The notes: generated by a model from the sequence alone, not told the origin. A stretch of 64,000 nucleotides of DNA from an uncultured Candidatus Saccharibacteria bacterium (GCA_964548205.1 CAZJPJ010000002.1:5737-69736), one strand, 5' to 3'; shown: positions 13,525-38,655, counted from the stretch's first letter. Made by a program: numbers and translations.

Positions 13525-16500
13525 ATGAGTAATCCAGGGTTGGAAATTGATAAAGGAATCAAAAGGTCCCCGGTAGATAGTTTGAGGTCTTTTGTAACCG
13601 ATCATGGGTATAAGGTTGAGTTCAATAGTGAGTTTTCAAACCTTGGCGCTGAAGAAAAGAACAGAGTTGCCGATATTTGGTTAGATTATCTAAGCAGTTT
13701 ATCAGAAGATGGTTTAAAAAGTTTTTTCTCTGGCCGTCAAGATAACATGCAAGTTATATCCGCCGACACTACTTACATTACACATCAATTAAGTGATGGC
13801 GATACTGCTGAGACAGAACCAACAAGGAGAATCACTTTTGGTTTAAACCCAGATTTTAAAAGAATATCAGATTTGTTAAATAGTTTAGATATAGGATGGA
13901 ACACTTCGGATAGTTTTGCTTTAATGAATGATCGAGCAAGAAAGAGAATATTAAGGGAAGTTGCTGATCGCTTGACCGAAAATTCTGATTCAGATTTGGT
14001 TGTGGCTCTTGGTGAGTTAAAGAAAAGAGAAGTGAGTATAATGTTGGCTCCAAATTCTCCCGGTGGTCACAATGGGGTGTCTTTGTCTGAAGATGGAAAA
14101 ATTTTAAATATAGCCAACCATTTTTTTACCGGTGCGGATATTTTAAGAGCTCTTGGTTTGGGCAATTTGATTAGTGTCAAGCAAGAGAAAAAGCAGGAAC
14201 AAGATGCAGAAATAAAAGGTCTAAAACTAGACATTTATCAGAAATTAGCGGGTGTAAATGTAGAGTATGGTCTTGAAGGAGATGAATTGGCAGAAGGTCT
14301 TCATAATTTTCTTAAGGTACTCAAAACCTATAGTTTATCTGAGTTGCAGACGATAAAAGAAAGATTTTCCAATATCTTGATAACAAAAGGTGTAGATATG
14401 TATTCTGATCTTGATTTGTTATTAAGAAAAGAAAGACAGGGTAGTTTGAGAGTTGATGCAACCCTTCCTTTCGAGGCTTTGAAACGGAACATAGATATTT
14501 TGGTCAATCCACTTCTTTTGTCAGATGATGTGCCAAGTCCTGATATTCCTGTACCGGAAATAGATGCTGAGGATGCAAATCCAGATCCATTTAAGGAGGG
14601 CGTGTTCGATCAATCTGAAGAAGTCAAAACTGGTATCGAAAAATTTAAACAAGATCTTTTTGAAGCAAGTAAAGATCTGGCGCGAGCCGAGTTTGATTTT
14701 AATAAGAGTAAAAGTCCCGAGGATAGAGAAAAAATGGATGAAGCCCAGACAAGATTGTACCAAAAAAGAGCGGAACTTGACCAAGAGGTTTTGAAAAATG
14801 TTAGTTCTAGAGCCAAAGATGAAAACATCGACGGTGCTAATTTGCAGGATGTAGATATAAAAATCGGATCTATATATAGGCGTATACAGATGGAGATATT
14901 GGCAGAAGAAAGAAGAGTCTTTCTAGACGAATACAGAAGTTATAGTGAACAAAATAGAGAAAGGGGAGCCAAAGATTGGCTTATAGAAAAAGCCAAAAAA
15001 GCCTTAGGTATAAAGGGGGTACAGTGGTATCTGGGTCTAAACAAATACAAGAGGACTGCTATAAATGTTGCCATATTTAGTACTGCTGTGACTGTAGGTA
15101 CTTTTGCTACGGGAATTGGGGCTGTAGCGGCTGCGGGCACAGGAGTTTCTATGGGAGCAATCAGAGGGGTCAGAGCTTTAGGAGCTTTGGGGACGGGGTA
15201 CCTTACTAACTCTCAGGTAGAGAAGAGAGGTATTAAAACACTAAATATCCTGTCTAAAGATGCTATAGATACTCTAGAAAAAGAAGAAAGAGAAAAAATA
15301 GAAAATTCAGGTATGGATATAAATGCAAAAGCAAAAGCTTATGAAGAGTTAGAGAGACGTCTTACAAGTGAAAAGAAAAAACTGAATATATCAAAGATAG
15401 TCGCAACTCTTGCAGGTGGTGTAGGTGGAGGTGTGGGTACTGGTCTGTTGCTAGATGCGTTTTACGGAGGAACAGGAAGTTCTTCTTTGCTGAACAATCG
15501 TTCTGGTCGCGCTTCTTTTGATCCCTCTTCTCAAAATGGAAGAAATTCTTTAACAGGATTATCGCCAAAGTCTCAAGACCAGATCCCTGTTGCGGGCAAA
15601 GGTGTTACAGAAGAGGTTGTCAAACCTATAGAACTTGTACCTCCTGCACAAGAGATGATGCCGCAGGTTGCTATACAGGAAATGTTTGGAAATACTGAAG
15701 CGGTGAAGCATATAGTGGAAGCTGGAGATTCTCAATGGAAACTTCTCGAAAAGACTCTTGAAAACTATGACAAATACAAACAGCTCTCTTCTGGAGAGGG
15801 GCAAAGTGCAAATGCTGTACTGGAGGCAAAGAGAACCTATGTAATCTCAATGCTAAATCAGGAGATTCAAAAAGACCCTTCTCAATATGGAGTAGATGCT
15901 GATGGGCTAAAGGTTGGCGATAAAGTTGATTATACAAAGTTGTTTGAAAACAAAGCTTTAGTGGATAGGGCTATAAATGAAGCAGAAAATCTAAAACCAA
16001 ATCAGATAGAGAATATTATTAAGAATAATGCTCAAGTAAAAAATTGGGTAGAAAAGCATTCCGGAGAAGCTCTTGATGAGAGTAAGGTAAGCGAAATTAT
16101 TTCTAACGACACTTCTAAGACTTCTGGGGGTATAAAATCACTATATACAGAATCCAGTGGTTCTACGGGCGCTGAAGGTGTTGATAATGAAGATGTGAAT
16201 GCTCGTGAGAGCACCACAGTTGCCCCAGATAAGGGGGGAGTAGAAGAAGTTGCAACTCCACAAGCAGCGGGTGCCAATGCGACGAAAGAAGCTGCTAAAG
16301 AAGTAGAGTTGCTCAAGAACAGTGAATACTTTGATGTATACAAGAAAGATATTGGTGAATCGTTGGTCCAATTCTTAGAATTAAAGGAACAAATCTTAAA
16401 ATTGGATTTACCGCAAAATGTTTCTAAGAATCTTGTAGCAAAAATTGATTACCTAACAAACAGTATAGAGGTTTTAAAAGAAAACCTGAATACATTGACG

Positions 16501-17223
16501 ACAGAATCGTATAATCAGCAAATTGAAAACATAGCAAATGAGTATGAACAACTTATCAATGAAGCTCGCAAGGCTATATCTGACGAAACTAAGTCAAGAG
16601 GTCTAATGGAAGATTTATCTAATGAAAAAAGATTACTTGCCAATCTAATAGACAATAAAAAGCCTAGTGTTGGTAACAGCGGTTTAGATGAGCAGAGAAA
16701 TATGATTCACAATGAAATAGCTGCTGCAAAGGAGAGATTGGTCGCTTTGCAATCACAGACTAAAGACAATGTAGTAGAGATGCCGACGAGGAATGCAAAT
16801 CTTGAGAGGACTATGTATGGAGATATTAGTGATATAGAAAGAATAGGAAAAACATTTGAACAAGAATTTAGAAATATATATGACCAAAATGGTTGGTTGA
16901 GACGTACGTCTGGAATTGATACTAAGGAGGGCCGATGGATGCTCTCTCAGAATTTTGACAAGATTTTGAAATTTGCCACAACTGGTGATGCACAAAAATC
17001 TGGATTGGCAGCTGAAGCTATAAACACCATATCTGGATCTCCCAAACATCAAGCTTTTCTTAATGAGATAAGAGATTTGCATAGTATGGCAAAAGAAAAT
17101 GGTATTGCAATAACAGTAGCCCCCAACACTGGTGTTCGAGAAGGTATGATGAAGTTGGTCGAATCTATTATGAGATTCCAAAATAACGCATCAGCTACAA
17201 ATGTGTTGCCTAAAGTGGCATAA
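13525..17223 (+). CDS. Giant hypothetical membrane protein of 1232 aa with no recognisable domains
   Basis: Uninterrupted 3.7-kb ORF. Central Gly/Ala-rich hydrophobic segments (AINVAIFSTAVTVGTFATGIGAVAAAGTGVSMGAI; IVATLAGGVGGGVGTGLLL). Long predicted coiled-coil regions on both sides and a Ser/Gly-rich linker. Confidence 0.6.
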   Translation: MSNPGLEIDKGIKRSPVDSLRSFVTDHGYKVEFNSEFSNLGAEEKNRVADIWLDYLSSLSEDGLKSFFSGRQDNMQVISADTTYITHQLSDGDTAETEPTRRITFGLNPDFKRISDLLNSLDIGWNTSDSFALMNDRARKRILREVADRLTENSDSDLVVALGELKKREVSIMLAPNSPGGHNGVSLSEDGKILNIANHFFTGADILRALGLGNLISVKQEKKQEQDAEIKGLKLDIYQKLAGVNVEYGLEGDELAEGLHNFLKVLKTYSLSELQTIKERFSNILITKGVDMYSDLDLLLRKERQGSLRVDATLPFEALKRNIDILVNPLLLSDDVPSPDIPVPEIDAEDANPDPFKEGVFDQSEEVKTGIEKFKQDLFEASKDLARAEFDFNKSKSPEDREKMDEAQTRLYQKRAELDQEVLKNVSSRAKDENIDGANLQDVDIKIGSIYRRIQMEILAEERRVFLDEYRSYSEQNRERGAKDWLIEKAKKALGIKGVQWYLGLNKYKRTAINVAIFSTAVTVGTFATGIGAVAAAGTGVSMGAIRGVRALGALGTGYLTNSQVEKRGIKTLNILSKDAIDTLEKEEREKIENSGMDINAKAKAYEELERRLTSEKKKLNISKIVATLAGGVGGGVGTGLLLDAFYGGTGSSSLLNNRSGRASFDPSSQNGRNSLTGLSPKSQDQIPVAGKGVTEEVVKPIELVPPAQEMMPQVAIQEMFGNTEAVKHIVEAGDSQWKLLEKTLENYDKYKQLSSGEGQSANAVLEAKRTYVISMLNQEIQKDPSQYGVDADGLKVGDKVDYTKLFENKALVDRAINEAENLKPNQIENIIKNNAQVKNWVEKHSGEALDESKVSEIISNDTSKTSGGIKSLYTESSGSTGAEGVDNEDVNARESTTVAPDKGGVEEVATPQAAGANATKEAAKEVELLKNSEYFDVYKKDIGESLVQFLELKEQILKLDLPQNVSKNLVAKIDYLTNSIEVLKENLNTLTTESYNQQIENIANEYEQLINEARKAISDETKSRGLMEDLSNEKRLLANLIDNKKPSVGNSGLDEQRNMIHNEIAAAKERLVALQSQTKDNVVEMPTRNANLERTMYGDISDIERIGKTFEQEFRNIYDQNGWLRRTSGIDTKEGRWMLSQNFDKILKFATTGDAQKSGLAAEAINTISGSPKHQAFLNEIRDLHSMAKENGIAITVAPNTGVREGMMKLVESIMRFQNNASATNVLPKVA

Positions 17224-22820: not shown

Positions 22821-23318
22821 GTGACAAATTACTTTCAAAACAAGAAAGATCACCCTCAACATATTTCAGTCGGGGCGGTGGTTGTAAATAGCAAGGGCGA
22901 GATAATGGCCCACTATTTTAGTGAACGACTTTCTCATGGATATTGGCCAGACCTAGGGCTAAAAGACTTTTATATTTTGATGAGGGAGACACTGAATCCA
23001 AACGAAACTCTCGAACAAGCTCTACACAGAGGTCTTATGGAAGAGTTTGGAGTAGAGGCAGAGATTGTCGATTATATCGGATCACAATGTACAAGTGTAA
23101 ATAGCGCGAAACATGGCTGGAAGATCGACAAAACGACTTTGTATTTCTTGTGCAAATTTATATCTCAAGATGTATCGAAGAGAAGCAAAGAAGACATAGA
23201 GGGTGAGACTGATATAGAATGGCGAACCAAAGAATTTCTTATTTCCAAGATGAAAGATCAAGCAAAGAAATATGGCAGAGGCGATCTAGACGAATCAAGC
23301 ATCTTAGAGAAAATATAA
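22821..23318 (+). CDS. NUDIX hydrolase
   Basis: Nudix box G.....E.LEQALHRGLMEEFGVEA. Confidence 0.75.
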   Translation: MTNYFQNKKDHPQHISVGAVVVNSKGEIMAHYFSERLSHGYWPDLGLKDFYILMRETLNPNETLEQALHRGLMEEFGVEAEIVDYIGSQCTSVNSAKHGWKIDKTTLYFLCKFISQDVSKRSKEDIEGETDIEWRTKEFLISKMKDQAKKYGRGDLDESSILEKI

Positions 23319-26776: not shown

Positions 26777-27601
26777 ATGGTTCATGTTTTGTATGGAAAA
26801 CCAGTTAGAGATAGTATCAAGGCTAATTTGGTAGAAAGGATTGGGAGGCTTTCTTTTGTCCCCGAGTTGGTTATTTTCCAGGTTGGAGATAGGGATGATT
26901 CAAATATCTATATAAATAATAAAAAGAAATTCGGAGAAGAAATTGGAGCAAAGATTAGGCATATAAAATTGGACGAGTCAGTAGAAGAGAGGGTACTTAT
27001 CGAAGAAGTGAAGAAAATGAATAATGAAGAGAGTGTTTCCGGTATCATAATCCAGCTGCCTCTACCCAAAAATATGGATACAGAGAAAATCCTTTCTTTT
27101 ATCTCCAAAGAAAAAGATGCTGACGGTTTGAGAGAAGTAGGAGGGGAAAATGAAGAAATTTTTGTTACTCCTGCGACAGCGAGGGCTGTAGAAAATATTT
27201 TGGATTTCTATAATATTGAGGTGTTGGGCAAGAAAGTTGCTGTGGTCGGTCGCTCTAGGTTGGCTGGATCCCCCATTGCTAGTGTTTTAAGAAAACGGGG
27301 GGCTCAGGTAGAGGTTTGTCATAAGGAAACGCTAGATACGGAAGCGGTTTGTAAAAGCTCTGATGTATTGGTATCTGCTGCAGGCCAGCCTAGTCTTATA
27401 ACAAAAGATTTTGTAAATAGTAACCAAGTTGTTATTGATGTGGGTATCAATAGGGTGAACGCTTCTGTTGTTGGGGATGTGGATTTTGAGGAAGTGGAGC
27501 CTATTGTTAAAGCAATTACGCCCGTACCGGGGGGTGTCGGCCCTCTTACAGTAGCTTGTCTTTTTGAGAATTTGCTTGATCTCTGTTATAATAAGAGCTA
27601 A
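26777..27601 (+). CDS. folD: Bifunctional 5,10-methylene-THF dehydrogenase / 5,10-methenyl-THF cyclohydrolase
   Basis: GKKVAVVGRSRLAGSPIA, VDVGINRV, PVPGGVGPLTVACL motifs. Confidence 0.85.
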   Translation: MVHVLYGKPVRDSIKANLVERIGRLSFVPELVIFQVGDRDDSNIYINNKKKFGEEIGAKIRHIKLDESVEERVLIEEVKKMNNEESVSGIIIQLPLPKNMDTEKILSFISKEKDADGLREVGGENEEIFVTPATARAVENILDFYNIEVLGKKVAVVGRSRLAGSPIASVLRKRGAQVEVCHKETLDTEAVCKSSDVLVSAAGQPSLITKDFVNSNQVVIDVGINRVNASVVGDVDFEEVEPIVKAITPVPGGVGPLTVACLFENLLDLCYNKS

Positions 27602-29813: not shown

Positions 29814-29846
29814 GTATCAAGTATTATGTATTAAGTATTATGCAAA
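29814..29846 (+). repeat. 33-nt direct repeat, downstream copy flanking rplK
   Basis: gtatcaagtattatgtattaagtattatgcaaa, immediately followed by a terminator hairpin. Confidence 0.5.
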
Positions 29847-29870
29847 AAAACACCGAGTGGTGTTTTTTGT
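29844..29870 (+). terminator. Intrinsic terminator after rplK
   Basis: aaaaacacc-gagt-ggtgttttttgttttt. Confidence 0.55.
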
Positions 29871-29944: not shown

Positions 29945-30376
29945 ATGAAAATTTACGTTGGTTGTGCGTTGACTCAGGCGTCAGCAGAGTTTCGTCAACA
30001 TGTTGACGGTCTCAAAGACCAATTACGGTATCTCGGACACGAAGTACTTGATTTCGTTGGCCTTGAAGCTGGTACACCTGAAGATGTGTACGCAGGGGAC
30101 ATCAGATGTGTTAGAGAGTGCGATATTTTTATCGCGGTTTGTGATTACCCAGCCATTGGTCTCGGCTATGAGCTTGGGGTAGCGGTGGAAGTACTGGGCA
30201 AACCAGTACTTGCTGTAGCTCACAAAAACGCAGTTGTTACAAGACTGGTGTTGGGCATCACTCACCCTAATTTTACTTTTCGTCGATATCAACTCTTGGC
30301 TGATGTTAAATATTTTCTTGCCGAGATGTTAGTACGACCGCAACAGCAACAGCTTCCGTTTCCGCTTATTCTCTAG
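29945..30376 (+). CDS. Nucleoside 2-deoxyribosyltransferase-family protein
   Basis: MKIYVGCAL... N-terminus and a central IAVCDYPAIGLGYELGVA block. These parallel the NDT motifs (IYFAGxxF; D.G..MELGYA with the catalytic Glu). The ORF is noticeably GC-richer than the flanks. Confidence 0.55.
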   Translation: MKIYVGCALTQASAEFRQHVDGLKDQLRYLGHEVLDFVGLEAGTPEDVYAGDIRCVRECDIFIAVCDYPAIGLGYELGVAVEVLGKPVLAVAHKNAVVTRLVLGITHPNFTFRRYQLLADVKYFLAEMLVRPQQQQLPFPLIL

Positions 30377-30464
30377 TTTGACTCGGTGCGAAGATTTGGT
30401 CTCGTACCGAGTTTTCGCGTTTATGGAAGTTGCTTTTTGGGGAACCGAGTAATATTATGATGAT

Positions 30465-30947
30465 ATGAAAGACAGTAGGCCGAGCTGGGATGAATATTTT
30501 TTTGAGATAATGGCGGCTGTAGCTAAGAGGGCTACGTGTGATAGGGGGCGAAGTGGGTGCGTTGTTGCTCGGGATAAGCGTATATTAGCTACTGGGTATG
30601 TAGGTGCTCCAGCGGGTTGTAAGCACTGTGATGAGGTTGGTCATGAGATGCACACAGTTCTCAAGGATGATGGTACAGAGTCAAAACATTGTATAAGGAC
30701 AGCCCACGCTGAGCAAAATGCTATAGCTCACGCGGCAAGAGTTGGTATATCTCTCGAGGACGCTACCCTCTATTGCCAGATGACACCTTGCTATGCATGT
30801 GCCAAGATGATAATAAATGCTGGTATTACAAGAGTGGTGGCAAAGAATGATTATCATGCAGGGGGCAGAAGTAAAGAAATTTTTAAAGAAGCAGGGGTAG
30901 CATACGAACTATTAAATGATGTAACAGAAAAATACGAAAACCAATGA
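30465..30947 (+). CDS. dCMP deaminase (cytidine/deoxycytidylate deaminase zinc-binding family, ComEB-like)
   Basis: HAEQNAI...PCYACAKMIINAGI zinc-binding signature. WDEYF N-terminus typical of dCMP deaminases. Confidence 0.8.
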   Translation: MKDSRPSWDEYFFEIMAAVAKRATCDRGRSGCVVARDKRILATGYVGAPAGCKHCDEVGHEMHTVLKDDGTESKHCIRTAHAEQNAIAHAARVGISLEDATLYCQMTPCYACAKMIINAGITRVVAKNDYHAGGRSKEIFKEAGVAYELLNDVTEKYENQ

Positions 30948-31273
30948 GTATAGATCTAAAGGCTCTCCAAAAGGAGGTAATGCAAAACAAAATAGATAAG
31001 GGCTTCAACACCACTGACGTGGCCCTTGAGTTTTGTAGAGCGCACGAAGAATTATCTGAAGCGTTTAAGAAATATAACCAAGGGTCAGATGGAGTAGCGG
31101 AAGAGTTTGCGGATGTGGCTATTTTTTTGCTCGGTATGTGTGAGATATTGGGCTTTGACCTCGAAAAAGAAATTGTTGAAAAAGTTGAAATCAATAAAAA
31201 ACGAAAGTACAAGAAACATAAATCTCCAGATGGCAAAGATATCTTTATACGTATAGAAGAAGGAGTAAGCTAA
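30944..31273 (+). CDS. MazG-like nucleotide pyrophosphohydrolase domain protein
   Basis: All-alpha NTP-PPase motifs (E..E...A....E.....EEFADVAIFLLGMCEILGFDLE). Start overlaps the dCMP deaminase stop (ATGA). Confidence 0.6.
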   Translation: MSIDLKALQKEVMQNKIDKGFNTTDVALEFCRAHEELSEAFKKYNQGSDGVAEEFADVAIFLLGMCEILGFDLEKEIVEKVEINKKRKYKKHKSPDGKDIFIRIEEGVS

Positions 31274-32625
31274 TCTTTTCGTACTATATCGTGTTCGCCA
31301 CGTTTGACATCAAATCTGTCTGGGTCTTTGTCTAGGTGTATTACTAGATTACAATCTTTAAACTTTTGTTCCAAGGTTTTGGCCATTTGTACAGCTCTTG
31401 CTCGTAGGGTCGGGTGTACGAAGCGAGTGGCACGTAATTCTACTAGATATACTAGAGCTGACAGATTTCCCGTAAGTTTATTGGGTAAGTTGTACCCCAT
31501 CGGTACGTAGTATTGCTTGTCTTCTTTGGACAGTTTTAGTGATTTTATTTTCTTTTTTTGGGACACTAACAATTTTTCTGCTTCTTTTCTAAATTCTTTT
31601 GGTAGCTCACTCAAATACCATTCTCCAAATCCATGTTCATCGGTAACAAGCGGCATTCTTTGGTGCACTGCCCTGTGGCGTTGGATATCTCTAAACGATC
31701 CAAAGTCTAGCAAAAATTCAAATTGTAGCTGACCACATTCTGCCACTTCTCTAGGGAGTTCGGTTTTAGAGGGTCTCTGTTTTAGAGATTGTGAAAAAGA
31801 TTTTAATGTATTTTTGTCGATGCTGTTTTTTGATAACCTAAAATCTGAAACTTTTTTATTTGTGTAGTAGTAATGTTTTTGCATCCAATCTTTATTGAAT
31901 TTTTCTGTACTGTCATACCTTTTGTGTCCGAAAGAGCTGGGGTAGGCTTCCTTCAGAGCTTCTTCTATCTTTTCTCCAATCTGTCGTACTTCTTCTAGTG
32001 GATGGTGGCGAAGGGTGGCGATATGGTCTGCAGCTTGTCTCAGATTGGTGTGCCAAGCAAGGTTGGTGGTAGCTCCTGCAGGTAAGAAACTTCTCATGAT
32101 ATCAAAAGCCCTGGCCATAATAGCTTTCTTGTAGATGTTCTCTAGCTCACCTTCTTTTATTGGAAATCTTTTTTGAAGCTCTGTTTCTAGAATCTTTAGT
32201 CCTTTCATGTAAAATTTTCTCCAGGTTTCCAATACCTCTTTTGAATTTTTATTTTTTGCTGGATCTAGAAATTTTTGTTTTGCAAAATCTATATAACGGG
32301 TAGAGGCTTCTTGACCGGAATACAGTGGCCAATCTTGTATGGCTTTGGCGGCAAGCATTGAAACTCCTTCTATGAAAATAGTGCAAGTACCACAATCACC
32401 GATCGATTTGTGGCCATAGCCGACATAAAAGGTCGACATAAACTTTTCTGAACCTTTGTTTATAAGAACTTCTAGGTGGCTTTTTATACCCCCTATAGAT
32501 CTAGAGTGTAGAGCTTGAAGCATGGCCTCGGATTCTGGGCTTATAAGAGCTCCATTATTGAGTATAAGCACCATGCCTCCACCTGGTAATTTCTTTTCTG
32601 TATGTTGTAGGGATTTGATATCCAT
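31270..32625 (-). CDS. thyX: Flavin-dependent thymidylate synthase (ThyX)-like protein, unusually long (451 aa) with an apparent tandem ThyX-like architecture
   Basis: The N-terminal half aligns to the ThyX core (ALHSRS..., GHKSIG.C.TCTIFIEGVS, ...TNLAWHTNLRQAADHIATLR) but lacks the RHR motif. The C-terminal half carries RHRAVHQR. Divergent promoter region shared with tmk. Confidence 0.5.
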   Translation of the reverse strand: MDIKSLQHTEKKLPGGGMVLILNNGALISPESEAMLQALHSRSIGGIKSHLEVLINKGSEKFMSTFYVGYGHKSIGDCGTCTIFIEGVSMLAAKAIQDWPLYSGQEASTRYIDFAKQKFLDPAKNKNSKEVLETWRKFYMKGLKILETELQKRFPIKEGELENIYKKAIMARAFDIMRSFLPAGATTNLAWHTNLRQAADHIATLRHHPLEEVRQIGEKIEEALKEAYPSSFGHKRYDSTEKFNKDWMQKHYYYTNKKVSDFRLSKNSIDKNTLKSFSQSLKQRPSKTELPREVAECGQLQFEFLLDFGSFRDIQRHRAVHQRMPLVTDEHGFGEWYLSELPKEFRKEAEKLLVSQKKKIKSLKLSKEDKQYYVPMGYNLPNKLTGNLSALVYLVELRATRFVHPTLRARAVQMAKTLEQKFKDCNLVIHLDKDPDRFDVKRGEHDIVRKD

Positions 32626-32677
32626 TGATATACTGAAGTGGTCGTGCTAAATATAGCATAAGAAAATAATAAACAGT

Positions 32678-33358
32678 ATGAAAAAGGGCAAGTTTATAGT
32701 GATAGAGGGAACTGATGGATCTGGAAAAGCGACTCAGTTGGAATATCTCACAAAATATTTGAAAAGAAATAAAAAAAAGTTTGCTACTGCAGATTTCCCC
32801 CAATACGACAATTTCTCAGGGGCGTTTGTTGCCAAGTATCTAAGAGGTGAATATGGAACCGCTGATGAAGTTGGTCCGTATAGAGGCTCGATGTTTTATG
32901 CAGTAGATAGATATGACAAATCTTTTGACATAAAGAAGTGGATAGATGAAGGCAAAATAGTTTTGAGCAATAGATATGTCTCTGCTAACATGGGACACCA
33001 GACGGGAAAGATAAAAGGGAAGAAAAATAAAGACAAATTTCTAAAATGGCTTGATAATCTAGAGTATGAAATATTTGGTATACCTAGACCCGATGCTACA
33101 ATTTTACTTTTTGTATCACCAGAAATTGGTCAAAAACTTGTAGACCAGAAAAAAGAAAGAGCTTATACCAAAGGCAAAAAGAGAGATATACATGAGGCAG
33201 ATCTCAAGCATCTTAAAAATGCCGCTCTAGCGTATGTGTATGTGGCAAAGAAATATAAATGGATCGTGATAAACTGTACAAAAAACGGAGAGATGCGTAC
33301 CCGTGAAGATATACACAAAGAAATAGTGAACGTGCTTGAAGGTAAAAAACTAATATAA
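32678..33358 (+). CDS. tmk: Thymidylate kinase
   Basis: FIVIEGTDGSGKATQ P-loop, DRY motif (AVDRYDKS). Confidence 0.85.
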   Translation: MKKGKFIVIEGTDGSGKATQLEYLTKYLKRNKKKFATADFPQYDNFSGAFVAKYLRGEYGTADEVGPYRGSMFYAVDRYDKSFDIKKWIDEGKIVLSNRYVSANMGHQTGKIKGKKNKDKFLKWLDNLEYEIFGIPRPDATILLFVSPEIGQKLVDQKKERAYTKGKKRDIHEADLKHLKNAALAYVYVAKKYKWIVINCTKNGEMRTREDIHKEIVNVLEGKKLI

Positions 33359-33413
33359 ACACATGATCTAACCTTCTGACAAAAGAATAGTTTTAACAGA
33401 TAAGTTTACTTAT

Positions 33414-34670
33414 ATGAAGGCAAAAATGAAGGACAAAAAAGTTGAAAAATTGATCAAAGGAGAAGAAAGGAGGCAAGCCCTAGGCCTTGAGCTTATCCCC
33501 TCAGAAAATTATGTTTCAAACGATGTGCTTGCAGCAAATGGTAGTGTGTTTACAAACAAATATTCTGAAGGTTATCCAGGCCGAAGGTATTATGGTGGTC
33601 AAGACTTTACCGATGAGGTAGAAAGGCTTGCTATAGAGAGAGCTTGCAAGCTCTTTAAGTGCAAATACGCCAATGTCCAACCTCATGCTGGAGCTCCGGC
33701 CAATGTGGCTGCATACTTCGCTCTCCTTGAGCCCGGGGACACTGTCATGGGTATGGACCTTTCGCATGGTGGGCACCTTACACATGGCCATCCTGTCACC
33801 AGCGTTACAAAAGTTTTCAAGTTTATACGATACAAGATGAAAAACCCTGATACAGGGGAGATAGATTATGAAGATATGGAGAGAGTGGCTATGAAAGAAA
33901 AGCCAAAGATAATTTTGGCAGGATTTTCTGCCTACACTCGAGAGTTGGATTATGCTCGTATGGCAAAAATAGCAAAGAAAGTAGGAGCTATAGCTATGGC
34001 AGACATTGCTCACATAGCTGGGCTTATAGCGGGGAAGGCTCACAAGAACCCATTTGATTATGGCTTCGACATAATGACTACTACTACTCACAAAACTCTA
34101 CGCGGCCCGAGAGGAGGCATGATACTCGTAAGAGATAATGAGGAGATAGCCAAGAAAATAGACAAGACAGTTTTCCCCGGACTTCAGGGTGGGCCACTCA
34201 TGCACCATGTGGCGGCAAAGGCTGTCTGCTTTGGCGAAGCCCTCTCACCAAAGTTTAAGGTTTATGCTAAGCAGATCATTAAAAATGCCAAGGCTATGGC
34301 AAAGGTGCTAGAAAAAAATAAAATCAGGATGATAGGAGGCGGTACTGACAACCACTGCATACTTGCTGATATCTATGGTTCGCTCGGGGTCACTGGCAAG
34401 GAAGCTCAGACTGTACTCGATGAAGTCGGCATCACTCTCAATATGAACGTCATTGCAGACGATCCTAGGAAACCTCTTGACCCATCAGGTATCAGGTTCG
34501 GCACACCTGCCATCACTACCAGAGGATTTAAAGAAAAAGAGTGTGCGAGAGTAGCGGAGTTGATGATCGGTGTACTCAAAGATAAGGAGAACAAAAAACT
34601 GAAGGCAGAAGTGAAGAAAGAAATCCAAAAGTTGGCCAAAAAATTCCCTATACCAAAGAGTTTTGTGTAA
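33414..34670 (+). CDS. glyA: Serine hydroxymethyltransferase
   Basis: LIPSENYVS, LSHGGHLTHG and PLP-Lys region TTTTHKTLRGPRGG. Confidence 0.95.
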   Translation: MKAKMKDKKVEKLIKGEERRQALGLELIPSENYVSNDVLAANGSVFTNKYSEGYPGRRYYGGQDFTDEVERLAIERACKLFKCKYANVQPHAGAPANVAAYFALLEPGDTVMGMDLSHGGHLTHGHPVTSVTKVFKFIRYKMKNPDTGEIDYEDMERVAMKEKPKIILAGFSAYTRELDYARMAKIAKKVGAIAMADIAHIAGLIAGKAHKNPFDYGFDIMTTTTHKTLRGPRGGMILVRDNEEIAKKIDKTVFPGLQGGPLMHHVAAKAVCFGEALSPKFKVYAKQIIKNAKAMAKVLEKNKIRMIGGGTDNHCILADIYGSLGVTGKEAQTVLDEVGITLNMNVIADDPRKPLDPSGIRFGTPAITTRGFKEKECARVAELMIGVLKDKENKKLKAEVKKEIQKLAKKFPIPKSFV

Positions 34671-34695
34671 GTCGTGAAAGTGTTACAATAAAGCC

Positions 34696-34971
34696 ATGAG
34701 AACTAAGTCTAAAATAACAAAATTGAAGAAAGAAAAAGGGAAGCTTGTCAGTTTGCCAGTGCTTATAGAACAAGATGAAAGGGGTATGTATATTGGTTCG
34801 GTGCCATCGCTTCGGTCTTGCTATACCCAAGCTCAAACACTAGACGAACTTTATAAAAATTTACAGGAAGTTGTAGAACTGTCTATAGAGGTAGAAAAAG
34901 AATTTTTTGGCAACAAAGTAGAGACCAATCGCATTGTTGGATTTCAGAATTTATCTTTTGCGCTACATTAA
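34696..34971 (+). CDS. hicB: HicB-family antitoxin (UPF0150)
   Basis: ...MYIGSVPSLRSCYTQAQTLDELYKNLQEVVEL... matches the HicB N-terminal RNase-H-like fold pattern. Confidence 0.6.
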   Translation: MRTKSKITKLKKEKGKLVSLPVLIEQDERGMYIGSVPSLRSCYTQAQTLDELYKNLQEVVELSIEVEKEFFGNKVETNRIVGFQNLSFALH

Positions 34972-34974
34972 GAT

Positions 34975-35202
34975 ATGCCCCACTTATCTCCAGTCTCTCC
35001 AAAGAAACTTTTCAAATTTTTGGAGAAAGAAGGTTTTGAGTGTATTAGAATAAAAGGAAGCCATCATTTTTTCTTAAACCCAGTTGACCAAAGGACGACT
35101 TGTGTACCCCTCCATGGCAAGAGGGATATTGGGGTCGGGCTTTTGCGCCAGATTATAAAGGATATAAATATGTCAGTTGAGGATTTTAAGTCGAACCTAT
35201 GA
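34975..35202 (+). CDS. hicA: HicA-family mRNA interferase toxin
   Basis: KKLFKFLEKEGFECIRIKGSHHFF..P....TCVPLHGKRDIGVGLLRQIIKD is the YcfA/HicA pattern. 4 nt after hicB. Confidence 0.65.
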   Translation: MPHLSPVSPKKLFKFLEKEGFECIRIKGSHHFFLNPVDQRTTCVPLHGKRDIGVGLLRQIIKDINMSVEDFKSNL

Positions 35203-35621
35203 AGTTAAAAGTAAAAAAAGTGCACTCTGATGCTAAGTTGCCGCACTATGCTAATGCACATGACGCTGGTATGGACCTTTTTGCTCTAGAAGAAGTAATA
35301 GTAAAGAAAGGGGAGATAGCTAGGATAAGGACGGGGATATCGCTTGAAATACCGGAAGGGTATGTAGGGCTTTGCTGGGACAAGAGCGGGCTCTCGATGA
35401 ACCACGGTATCAAGACTTTGGCTGGAGTTATAGACTCTGGGTTTCGTGGGGAGCTTGTGGTAGCTGTCATAAACTTGGGCAATGAAGACTATACCTTTGA
35501 AAAAGGGCACAAAGTAATGCAGATGCTTGTGCAGAAAATTGAAACTGTAGAAATAGAAGAAGCAGAAGAACTGTCTGATTCAGATAGAGGAGAAAAAGGC
35601 TTCGGCAGCAGTGGGAAGTAG
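35199..35621 (+). CDS. dut: dUTP diphosphatase
   Basis: AGMDLFA, GLCWDKSGL, GVIDSGFRGEL motifs. Confidence 0.9.
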   Translation: MKLKVKKVHSDAKLPHYANAHDAGMDLFALEEVIVKKGEIARIRTGISLEIPEGYVGLCWDKSGLSMNHGIKTLAGVIDSGFRGELVVAVINLGNEDYTFEKGHKVMQMLVQKIETVEIEEAEELSDSDRGEKGFGSSGK

Positions 35622-38153: not shown

Positions 38154-38177
38154 AAAAACAGGCGTTGGCCTGTTTGG
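38153..38177 (+). terminator. Intrinsic terminator-like hairpin
   Basis: aaaaaacaggc-gttg-gcctgtttgg directly after the stop codon. Confidence 0.45.
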
Positions 38178-38197
38178 AGAAAAATGTAAAAAAGGAA

Positions 38198-38400
38198 AAA
38201 CCGGCAGCGTTTTGGTATGACACCGCCGGTTTGCTCGGCCTGGCAAATCTGTTGCGAGACCAGACCGAGTCTTTCACCCAGCGCCGCGCGTTTCATGCAC
38301 GGCAGCGGCGGGTGATCGCGGCGCTGACAAGACTCCGACTGACAGAGTCTCAGTCCCAACCGCGCGAGATCGGGCAATCAAACCCGAATCTTCCTTAAGT
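38198..38400. other. GC-rich, highly structured noncoding element (candidate small structured RNA or inserted element)
   Basis: ~200 nt of strikingly high GC content in an AT-rich genome. Perfect hairpins aaaccggc...gccggttt (38198-38232) and cagcgccgcg...cgcggcgctg (38279-38326). Only short overlapping ORFs of low coding likelihood occur on either strand. Confidence 0.4.
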
Positions 38401-38587
38401 ATAGCACCTTTATGGGTGACTGTCAAGCGTTTTGAGAATTTGTTGGTATTTTCTTTTTATTGCTACCAAAATACGTTGCAAAATAAGGATAAAATTGGAC
38501 AAGGACAAAAATGAGGCCGATTTTATAGGGCTAGAGCTATATTTGCCATAAAGGCGCGGTCTGGCTTGTCGGGGTATTGCGGGGTGT

Positions 38588-38616
38588 TTGACAATAAGCT
38601 GTTATTTGATAGTATA
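38588..38616 (+). promoter_or_regulatory. Promoter of the rpsS-rplE block: TTGACA, 16-nt spacer, extended -10 TGaTAGTAT, followed by a leader hairpin
   Basis: Consensus -35. TG two nt upstream of TAGTAT. The cccgc-tct-gcggg hairpin and an AAAGAG Shine-Dalgarno precede the rpsS ATG. Confidence 0.5.
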
Positions 38617-38655
38617 TTCGGGTCCCGCTCTGCGGGTTTAGTTTTATAAAGAGTT

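Follow-up and report, generated by a model that had tools for sequence, protein, structure and literature searches.

A candidate dTMP supply module with a double-domain flavin-dependent thymidylate synthase on a Candidatus Saccharibacteria chromosome

We analysed a stretch of 64,000 nucleotides from an uncultured Candidatus Saccharibacteria bacterium (GCA_964548205.1, CAZJPJ010000002.1:5737-69736). The whole 64-kb stretch is called the window below, and coordinates count from its first letter. Between positions 29,945 and 35,621 it carries a compact cluster of genes for the metabolism of pyrimidine deoxynucleotides, including one for a flavin-dependent thymidylate synthase (ThyX) of unusual length. 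A preliminary description, made from the sequence alone, had listed the genes of this cluster, and all of them were recovered in the same order and at the same coordinates in the open reading frame (ORF) map. The features are listed here by coordinates, strand and identity, with the supporting evidence in brackets and protein lengths in amino acids (aa).

29845..29868, +, terminator-like hairpin 3' of rplK (10-bp stem, then a T run; consensus match only)
29945..30376, +, protein of the nucleoside 2-deoxyribosyltransferase (NDT)/DNPH1 superfamily, 143 aa (PF05014; Tyr4, Asp52, Glu76)
30465..30947, +, dCMP deaminase, 160 aa (PF00383 and zinc motifs)
30944..31273, +, MazG-like NTP pyrophosphohydrolase, small and all-alpha, 109 aa (PF12643, PHROG 3301, metal motifs)
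31270..32625, -, tandem (double-domain) flavin-dependent thymidylate synthase ThyX, 451 aa (PF02511)
31912..32592, -, ThyX N-terminal domain, residues 12-238 (Thy1 score, hhalign, conservation)
31345..31851, -, ThyX C-terminal domain, residues 259-427 (Thy1 score, hhalign, AF2 and Foldseek)
32678..33358, +, tmk, dTMP kinase, 226 aa (PF02223; P-loop GTDGSGK, DRY)
33414..34670, +, glyA, serine hydroxymethyltransferase (PF00464, NF000586)
34696-34971, +, hicB (PF15919)
34975-35202, +, hicA (PF07927)
35199..35621, +, dut, dUTPase, 140 aa (TIGR00576 and motifs)
26777..27601, +, folD, methylenetetrahydrofolate (methylene-THF) dehydrogenase/cyclohydrolase, outside the reported span (ORF translation; the name is a reading of the sequence)

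The genes are tightly packed. The start codon of the MazG-like gene overlaps the deaminase stop codon in an ATGA, in agreement with the translational coupling proposed for this pair. The ThyX gene is convergent with the MazG-like gene, their stop codons overlapping by 4 nt, and divergent from tmk, from which it is separated by a spacer of 52 bp. The toxin-antitoxin pair said to be wedged between glyA and dut is indeed there, in the order hicB then hicA, with the antitoxin gene first; the hicA stop overlaps the dut start in an ATGA, and hicBA may now be co-transcribed with dut. On the upstream side, rplK is followed by the hairpin and the NDT-like gene and not by rplA. Judging from the hairpin, a separate transcription unit probably begins there. 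Rfam and tRNA scans of the module region gave no match, and promoter-like matches in it occurred at chance level only.

Most of the conventional enzymes were assigned with scores well above the cut-offs. GlyA reached 504 bits with PF00464 and 572 bits with NF000586 (cut-off 335), and the dUTPase reached 145.6 bits with TIGR00576 (cut-off 102.55), the standard dUTPase motifs being readable. Tmk scored 65.4 bits with PF02223 (cut-off 27) and 113 bits with NF005923; its 72.5 bits with TIGR00041 fall under the cut-off of 83.25. The adjacent genes for HicA (PF07927, 64.7 bits) and HicB (HicB_lk_antitox, PF15919, 28.6 bits) encode proteins that both exceed their cut-offs.

The ThyX protein had been proposed to contain two ThyX-like halves. 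Scanned as a whole, it matched PF02511 (Thy1) with 79.1 bits in two stretches, against a gathering score of 24.8. Each half also matched Thy1 when scanned alone, the N half (residues 56-230) with 58.1 bits and the C half (293-421) with 25.1 bits, just over the cut-off. With Thermotoga maritima ThyX as the reference (a sequence identical to PDB 1kq4), hhalign aligned both halves colinearly, residues 12-238 with T. maritima residues 4-209 at a probability of 96%, and residues 259-427 with T. maritima residues 26-201 at E 7.7e-4 and a probability of 25%. The full-length AF2 model has a pLDDT of 83.9, and a Foldseek search of the PDB with it returned ThyX structures only. The C half modelled alone has a pLDDT of 88; its top 50 PDB matches are all ThyX, with E values from 2.5e-7 and query-normalised TM-scores of 0.50-0.57. 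The double length is thus borne out by Thy1 scores of the separate halves, by colinear alignment and by the fold of the C half. The protein does not match a single ordinary ThyX over its whole length, each half is a ThyX domain, and the duplication is therefore real.

The two halves have kept different parts of the active site. As had been noted, the RHR motif occurs once in the translation, at residues 316-318 of the second half, and the N half has D98-W99-P100 at that position. The signature RHR...S-x-R-Y is not found within one domain; the N half reads DWP...STRY and the C half has RHR without S-x-R-Y, so that the motif is complete only with both halves combined. The N half retains H72, E106, S108, R110, Y111 and R178, equivalent to T. 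maritima H53, E86, S88, R90, Y91 and R147, respectively. The C half retains R312, D313, R316-H317-R318, R398 and H404, where R316, R318, R398 and H404 correspond to R78, R80, R174 and H178 of T. maritima and Q371 occupies the position of R147. T. maritima R174, the counterpart of R398, is the second uracil-binding arginine. Conservation was counted over 129 diverse members of the long ThyX family. R316, R318, R398 and H404 of the C half are each present in 129/129, as are S108 and R110 of the N half, together with E106 in 125/129 and Y111 in 124/129. The N-half equivalents of RHR are degenerate (D/x/P), and its R174 equivalent is an arginine in only 38 of the 129. D175, R284, D313 and R442 are invariant in the long form and absent from canonical ThyX.

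Canonical homotetrameric ThyX, such as T. maritima TM0449 and the Mycobacterium tuberculosis enzyme, has the fold of each half of the window protein and the same catalytic residues as its two halves taken together. In the canonical enzyme each subunit has RHR...S-x-R-Y within one domain and the four sites are equivalent, whereas in the window protein the motif is split over two diverged domains, from which about half the sites would be expected. A review of ThyX structures describes four active sites lying between three subunits and lists, for M. tuberculosis ThyX, the residues that hold the dUMP of subunit C, namely R95 and R199 from subunit A together with R87, S105, R107 and Y108 from subunit C itself (PMC6514825). 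By alignment, R95 corresponds to T. maritima R78, R199 to R174, and S105, R107 and Y108 to S88, R90 and Y91. These equivalences and the conservation pattern suggest that the "subunit A" residues survive in the C half and the "subunit C" residues in the N half. The C half would then provide RHR, for flavin adenine dinucleotide (FAD) and the dUMP phosphate, and the R174 equivalent, as one subunit of the canonical tetramer does, and the N half would provide the E-x-S-x-R-Y of the subunit that holds dUMP. With the roles divided in this way, a dimer of chains would mimic the tetramer and have roughly two active sites instead of four. We lean towards regarding the long ThyX enzymes as obligate, asymmetric pseudo-dimers formed by a single chain, with the number of active sites halved. 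In the literature, of which our coverage was incomplete, we found neither a tandem or duplicated ThyX nor the split motif described, nor any account of ThyX in the candidate phyla radiation (CPR).

The double-length ThyX, real as it is, belongs to a long form that Chlamydia also has and that is not new. Residues 70-416 of the window protein align with residues 94-495 of Chlamydia pneumoniae ThyX, through both halves, at 24% identity and E 7e-26. The chlamydial query shares 97% identity with CPn_0746 of C. pneumoniae (531 aa). Its family, annotated as FAD-dependent thymidylate synthase, covers the genus Chlamydia and other Chlamydia-like genomes; the C. trachomatis member has 529 aa, and its membership of the cluster was confirmed by look-up. 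The mechanism of C. trachomatis ThyX was reportedly characterised by Griffin and colleagues in 2005, in J Biol Chem. The same enzyme has been cloned, purified and assayed (PMC3498832), and Chlamydia is counted among the organisms that rely on ThyX alone (PMC5954106, PMC6514825).

Comparison of 60 CPR-type and 119 Chlamydia-type sequences revealed a common set of residues, namely S41, R42, S74, E106, S108, R110, Y111 and D175 in the N part and R284, R312, D313, R316, R318, Q371, R398, H404 and R442 in the C part. Like the window protein, the chlamydial enzyme has two colinear Thy1 domains per chain, an N half with D for the first arginine of RHR and with E-x-S-x-R-Y, and a C half with R-D-x-x-RHR, Q371, R398 and H404. 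It differs in being about 80 residues longer and in the absence of the W336-Y337 motif, which is restricted to the CPR type. At residue 72 (window 32410-32412; T. maritima His53), His is found in 56/60 CPR-type sequences and Asp in 119/119 Chlamydia-type sequences, a contrast that possibly reflects a mechanistic difference between the clades.

The long form is widespread. More than 4265 close homologs of the CPR-type protein were recovered, about 450 aa long and 60-76% identical to it, many of them annotated as FAD-dependent thymidylate synthase. Long ThyX relatives comprise 2034 cluster representatives at E <= 1e-3 and were found in no fewer than 555 species genomes. Among these genomes, the best 80 appear to be metagenome-assembled genomes of CPR bacteria, with a minority of records under other taxon labels; some Chlamydia-type sequences are labelled Verrucomicrobia or Victivallaceae by their sources. 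In one related locus (L041), two separate ORFs match long ThyX, as might result from a gene that is split or frameshifted, or from a duplication. Tandem long ThyX is also encoded by jumbo Vibrio phages (phage matches H1-H4). ORF269 of Vibrio phage BONAISHI (L085 4890-6332) is 32.5% identical to the window protein and has the same asymmetric residues except for Ala at Q371; a best hit to Parcubacteria was already noted for it in the paper on that phage (PMC6207643). The predicted structure of a Microcystis phage LMM01 protein (BFVD A0A7D4) matches the full-length ThyX model, and in Yong phages the long ThyX gene is annotated as hypothetical.

The remaining enzymes of the cluster were assigned with varying clarity. 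Of the family assignments suggested for checking by hidden Markov models, PF02511 was recovered twice in ThyX, as described, and PF05014 marginally in the NDT-like protein, with 29.9 bits against a cut-off of 28.8 over residues 42-97 only. The MazG-like protein matched PF12643 with 25.4 bits, under the cut-off of 27. The best PDB matches of the NDT-like protein are Rcl/DNPH1 (1.9e-6), aligned across D52 and E76 (GLGYELG). The catalytic glutamate, whose absence would have spoken against an enzyme of this family, is present as E76, which, like Y4 and D52, shows no variation among 18 family members. DNPH1/Rcl and the nucleoside 2-deoxyribosyltransferases (PF05014) share with the NDT-like protein the pattern P-(S/A)-x-G-x-G-Y-E-L-G, the nucleophilic Glu, the Tyr and the Asp. 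The G-S-I-R-G-G phosphate loop of DNPH1 is not found in it and G-C-A-L-T-Q-A stands there instead, as judged against a human DNPH1 sequence. The protein belongs to a CPR-specific subfamily; we found 187 homologs, all small, of which nearly all come from CPR and most are annotated as hypothetical. An identical copy is recorded on a 136-kb contig (sources NCBI and Logan).

The deaminase matched PF00383 with 85.1 bits and has the zinc motifs H81-A-E83 and P108-C-Y-A-C112. It scored 114.9 bits with the ComEB model TIGR02571, under the equivalog cut-off of 219.45, and 8.5e-43 with the PHROG dCMP deaminase. The MazG-like protein matched PHROG 3301, "pyrophosphatase", at 9.5e-14 and, in the PDB, the pyrophosphatase 4qgp at 1.4e-3, with further weak matches to 1vmg, MazZ and DCTPP1. 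Its metal motifs E35E36xxE39 and E53E54xxD57 and its length agree with the EExxE...EExxD motif and the approximately 110 aa of small MazG-type and DCTPP1-type pyrophosphohydrolases, from which it differs in falling below the Pfam cut-off.

To place the cluster among related genomes, we fetched the flanks of long ThyX genes in 83 CPR loci and counted the loci with each gene nearby. The gene most often found was tmk, adjacent to long ThyX (51/83), followed by rplK (41/83), an AAA_18 kinase (33/83), dCMP deaminase and dut (28/83 each), gatB (27/83), argS (16/83) and glyA (15/83). Lower counts were obtained for the NDT-like gene (8/83), folD and NUDIX (5/83 each), HD and thymidine kinase (TK; 4/83 each), MazG (3/83) and dihydrofolate reductase (DHFR; 2/83). 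The arrangement of rplK, accessory genes, ThyX, tmk, dut, glyA and argS recurs over many CPR lineages, and one locus (L035) has a gene set nearly identical to that of the window. The core, formed by ThyX, tmk, deaminase and dut beside rplK, is conserved and therefore appears to be vertically inherited. Between loci, the accessories for house-cleaning and salvage are interchangeable.

Other CPR loci have an HD or NUDIX protein or an AAA_18-type kinase in the slots held here by the MazG-like and NDT-like genes. In several related loci a NUDIX gene lies inside the dTMP cluster; the window has a NUDIX hydrolase gene at 22821-23318 (+), 7 kb upstream of the module. A DHFR gene is located directly 3' of long ThyX in some CPR genomes (L001 9350-9832; L015). 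ThyX chemistry yields no dihydrofolate.

The NDT-like and deaminase genes had been described as richer in GC than the DNA around them. Their overall GC contents (0.458 and 0.445) do exceed the window mean of 0.396, and the 1-kb span ranks in the highest 2.7% of the intervals compared. Relative to 62 genes of the window, GC at third codon positions (GC3) gave z values of +0.35 for the NDT-like gene and -0.27 for the deaminase gene, and rplK, glyA and dut are as GC-rich as these two. GC3 is thus average; the surplus sits in codon positions 1 and 2 and reflects amino-acid composition. Elsewhere the window consists of core CPR chromosome, with genes for SecY, NusA, EF-Tu, ribosomal proteins, type IV pilus components, LigA and GatA. 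Horizontal acquisition of the module was rejected on the native GC3 and the conserved synteny.

The same data bear on the proposal of a horizontally acquired, phage-like pathway for a non-canonical (hypermodified) pyrimidine, in which the ThyX-like protein would be a modified-base synthase and the NDT-like and MazG-like enzymes would remove the canonical nucleotide. Phage sets for pyrimidine hypermodification combine an enzyme of the thymidylate synthase family with a deaminase and with MazG-like and NDT-like proteins, as the window does; long ThyX occurs in the jumbo Vibrio phages and LMM01, two genes have raised overall GC, and the relatives of known structure nearest to the NDT-like protein include DNPH1, for which a 5-hydroxymethyl-dUMP N-hydrolase function is described. 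The window nevertheless differs from such sets in having no hydroxymethylase-type thymidylate synthase and no transferases or kinases for base decoration, and its locus is chromosomal, syntenic across CPR and linked to genes for ribosomal proteins and an aminoacyl-tRNA synthetase. No transferase genes, whether for glycosyl, amino or other groups, and no hydroxymethylase-type genes were seen nearby in the ORF map. PADLOC matched nothing except 48 residues around the zinc motif of the deaminase, and gave no match for the NDT-like, MazG-like, ThyX, HicA and HicB proteins. The position beside rplK is common to CPR lineages and GC3 is native, the dUMP-binding residues are conserved in a ThyX of the same tandem type as the Chlamydia thymidylate synthase, and tmk, dut and glyA are the genes that normally accompany dTMP synthesis. 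On these grounds the base-modification pathway raised by the preliminary description was not upheld, and we rate it highly improbable. A related proposal, that the NDT/DNPH1-like, MazG-like and tandem ThyX proteins make or clear a 5-substituted deoxyuridylate such as 5-hydroxymethyl-dUMP, is very unlikely; if it were true, these bacteria would carry or police a non-canonical pyrimidine.

A nucleotide-depleting anti-phage island, with the deaminase, an NDT-like effector, the MazG-like protein and hicAB as its parts, was also considered. The zinc motif of the deaminase locally matches the PADLOC dCTPase model and the NCBIfam model for anti-phage dCTP deaminase, and a toxin-antitoxin pair is present. 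These matches, however, cover only about 48 residues of models of 437-630 positions and are far under the cut-offs, and PADLOC had no match for the other five proteins. Moreover, hicA or hicB is found at this position in 0/83 related loci, in which the metabolic genes are conserved. We give such an island almost no credence, and a defence role was rejected on the PADLOC results. Its absence from related loci makes hicBA look like a recent, lineage-specific insertion, and from the comparison it looks like the only part of the module that resembles one.

We therefore prefer to read the cluster as an ordinary housekeeping module, vertically inherited, for the supply of dTMP and dTTP on a CPR/Patescibacteria chromosome, to which we assign a probability of roughly 0.85. 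The compact pyrimidine-deoxynucleotide/dTMP module envisaged for this reduced-genome organism is supported by the gene identities and by intact catalytic motifs. The flow of the pathway is drawn from the established roles of these enzyme families. The dCMP deaminase would convert dCMP to dUMP, and Dut would convert dUTP to dUMP. The coupled MazG-like pyrophosphohydrolase would probably act on dCTP or dUTP, giving dCMP or dUMP, or remove non-canonical dNTPs. Tandem ThyX would methylate dUMP to dTMP with FAD, NADPH and methylene-THF, the last being regenerated by GlyA and the upstream FolD, and Tmk would phosphorylate dTMP to dTDP. For the NDT/DNPH1-like enzyme we envisage an accessory N-glycosidase or deoxyribosyl-transferase activity in salvage or clean-up. 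That ThyX itself synthesises dTMP from dUMP with these cofactors is inferred from its residues, the gene context and the Chlamydia homolog. The module is also a plausible main source of dTTP, as had been suggested, with no thyA, DHFR, tdk or second thyX gene found in the 64-kb window.

Several results count against this reading or parts of it. The absence of thyA, DHFR (folA), TK (tdk) and a second, short thyX applies to the 64-kb window, which was the scope of the search. The NDT-like gene in 8 and MazG in 3 of the 83 loci point to a loose role in the pathway and not to a fixed set. For ThyX, BLASTP and hhalign detected no significant similarity between the N and C halves, phmmer with the whole protein found no ThyX in the PDB, and the NCBIfam thyX equivalog TIGR02170 reached 40.8 bits under a cut-off of 87.9, matching the N half only. 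A profile of the long ThyX family also gave weak PDB matches, confined to the N half. Because the C half aligns weakly to canonical ThyX, residue equivalences in it depend on motif anchoring and the fold match. The two-chain dimer with about two functional sites is a prediction in both oligomeric state and site number. Given that the halves are mutually dissimilar, the duplication is established through Pfam, through hhalign to canonical ThyX and through structure.

The shortfall against TIGR02170 would also fit a tandem ThyX-like protein that is not a dUMP methylase, one that acts on another substrate, for example by methylation of UMP or dCMP, or in which one half has a regulatory or binding role. 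The extra invariant residues D175, R284, D313 and R442 would agree with this, and ThyX-fold enzymes acting on other nucleotides do exist, PolB of polyoxin synthesis being one. The full set of dUMP-contacting residues is nevertheless conserved in trans, the gene is tightly linked to tmk, dut and dCMP deaminase, and the homologous long form is what Chlamydia depends on to obtain dTMP (PMC5954106, PMC6514825). We consider a substrate or role of this kind unlikely and retain dUMP methylation as the predicted function.

Further features of the window lie outside the module. The S10/spc ribosomal-protein operon is split into L3-L4-L2 (19468-21931) and S19-L22-S3...L14-L5 (38656-42175). The gap of about 16.7 kb contains genes for L19, two tRNAs, a NUDIX protein, a two-component system, folD, secE-nusG-rplK, the dTMP module and argS. 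Upstream of rpsS, positions 38154-38655 form a gap of about 500 bp with a richer GC content of about 0.455 and no long ORFs, in which Rfam found no family match (best E 0.68). An ORF of 1232 aa at 13525-17223 (+) has no Pfam match at E <= 1e-5.

As a discovery the module carries little weight, and the reading of a split motif with half the sites is a modest, testable addition. The locus suggests how a minimal-genome CPR bacterium may secure its dTTP, from dC and dU nucleotides and from one-carbon units that serine provides, with a changing set of accessory hydrolases. In long ThyX, the active-site halves that belong to different subunits of the canonical enzyme would be divided over two fused domains, which would make it a natural single-chain system for the study of ThyX catalysis and may be relevant to the design of inhibitors against Chlamydia ThyX.

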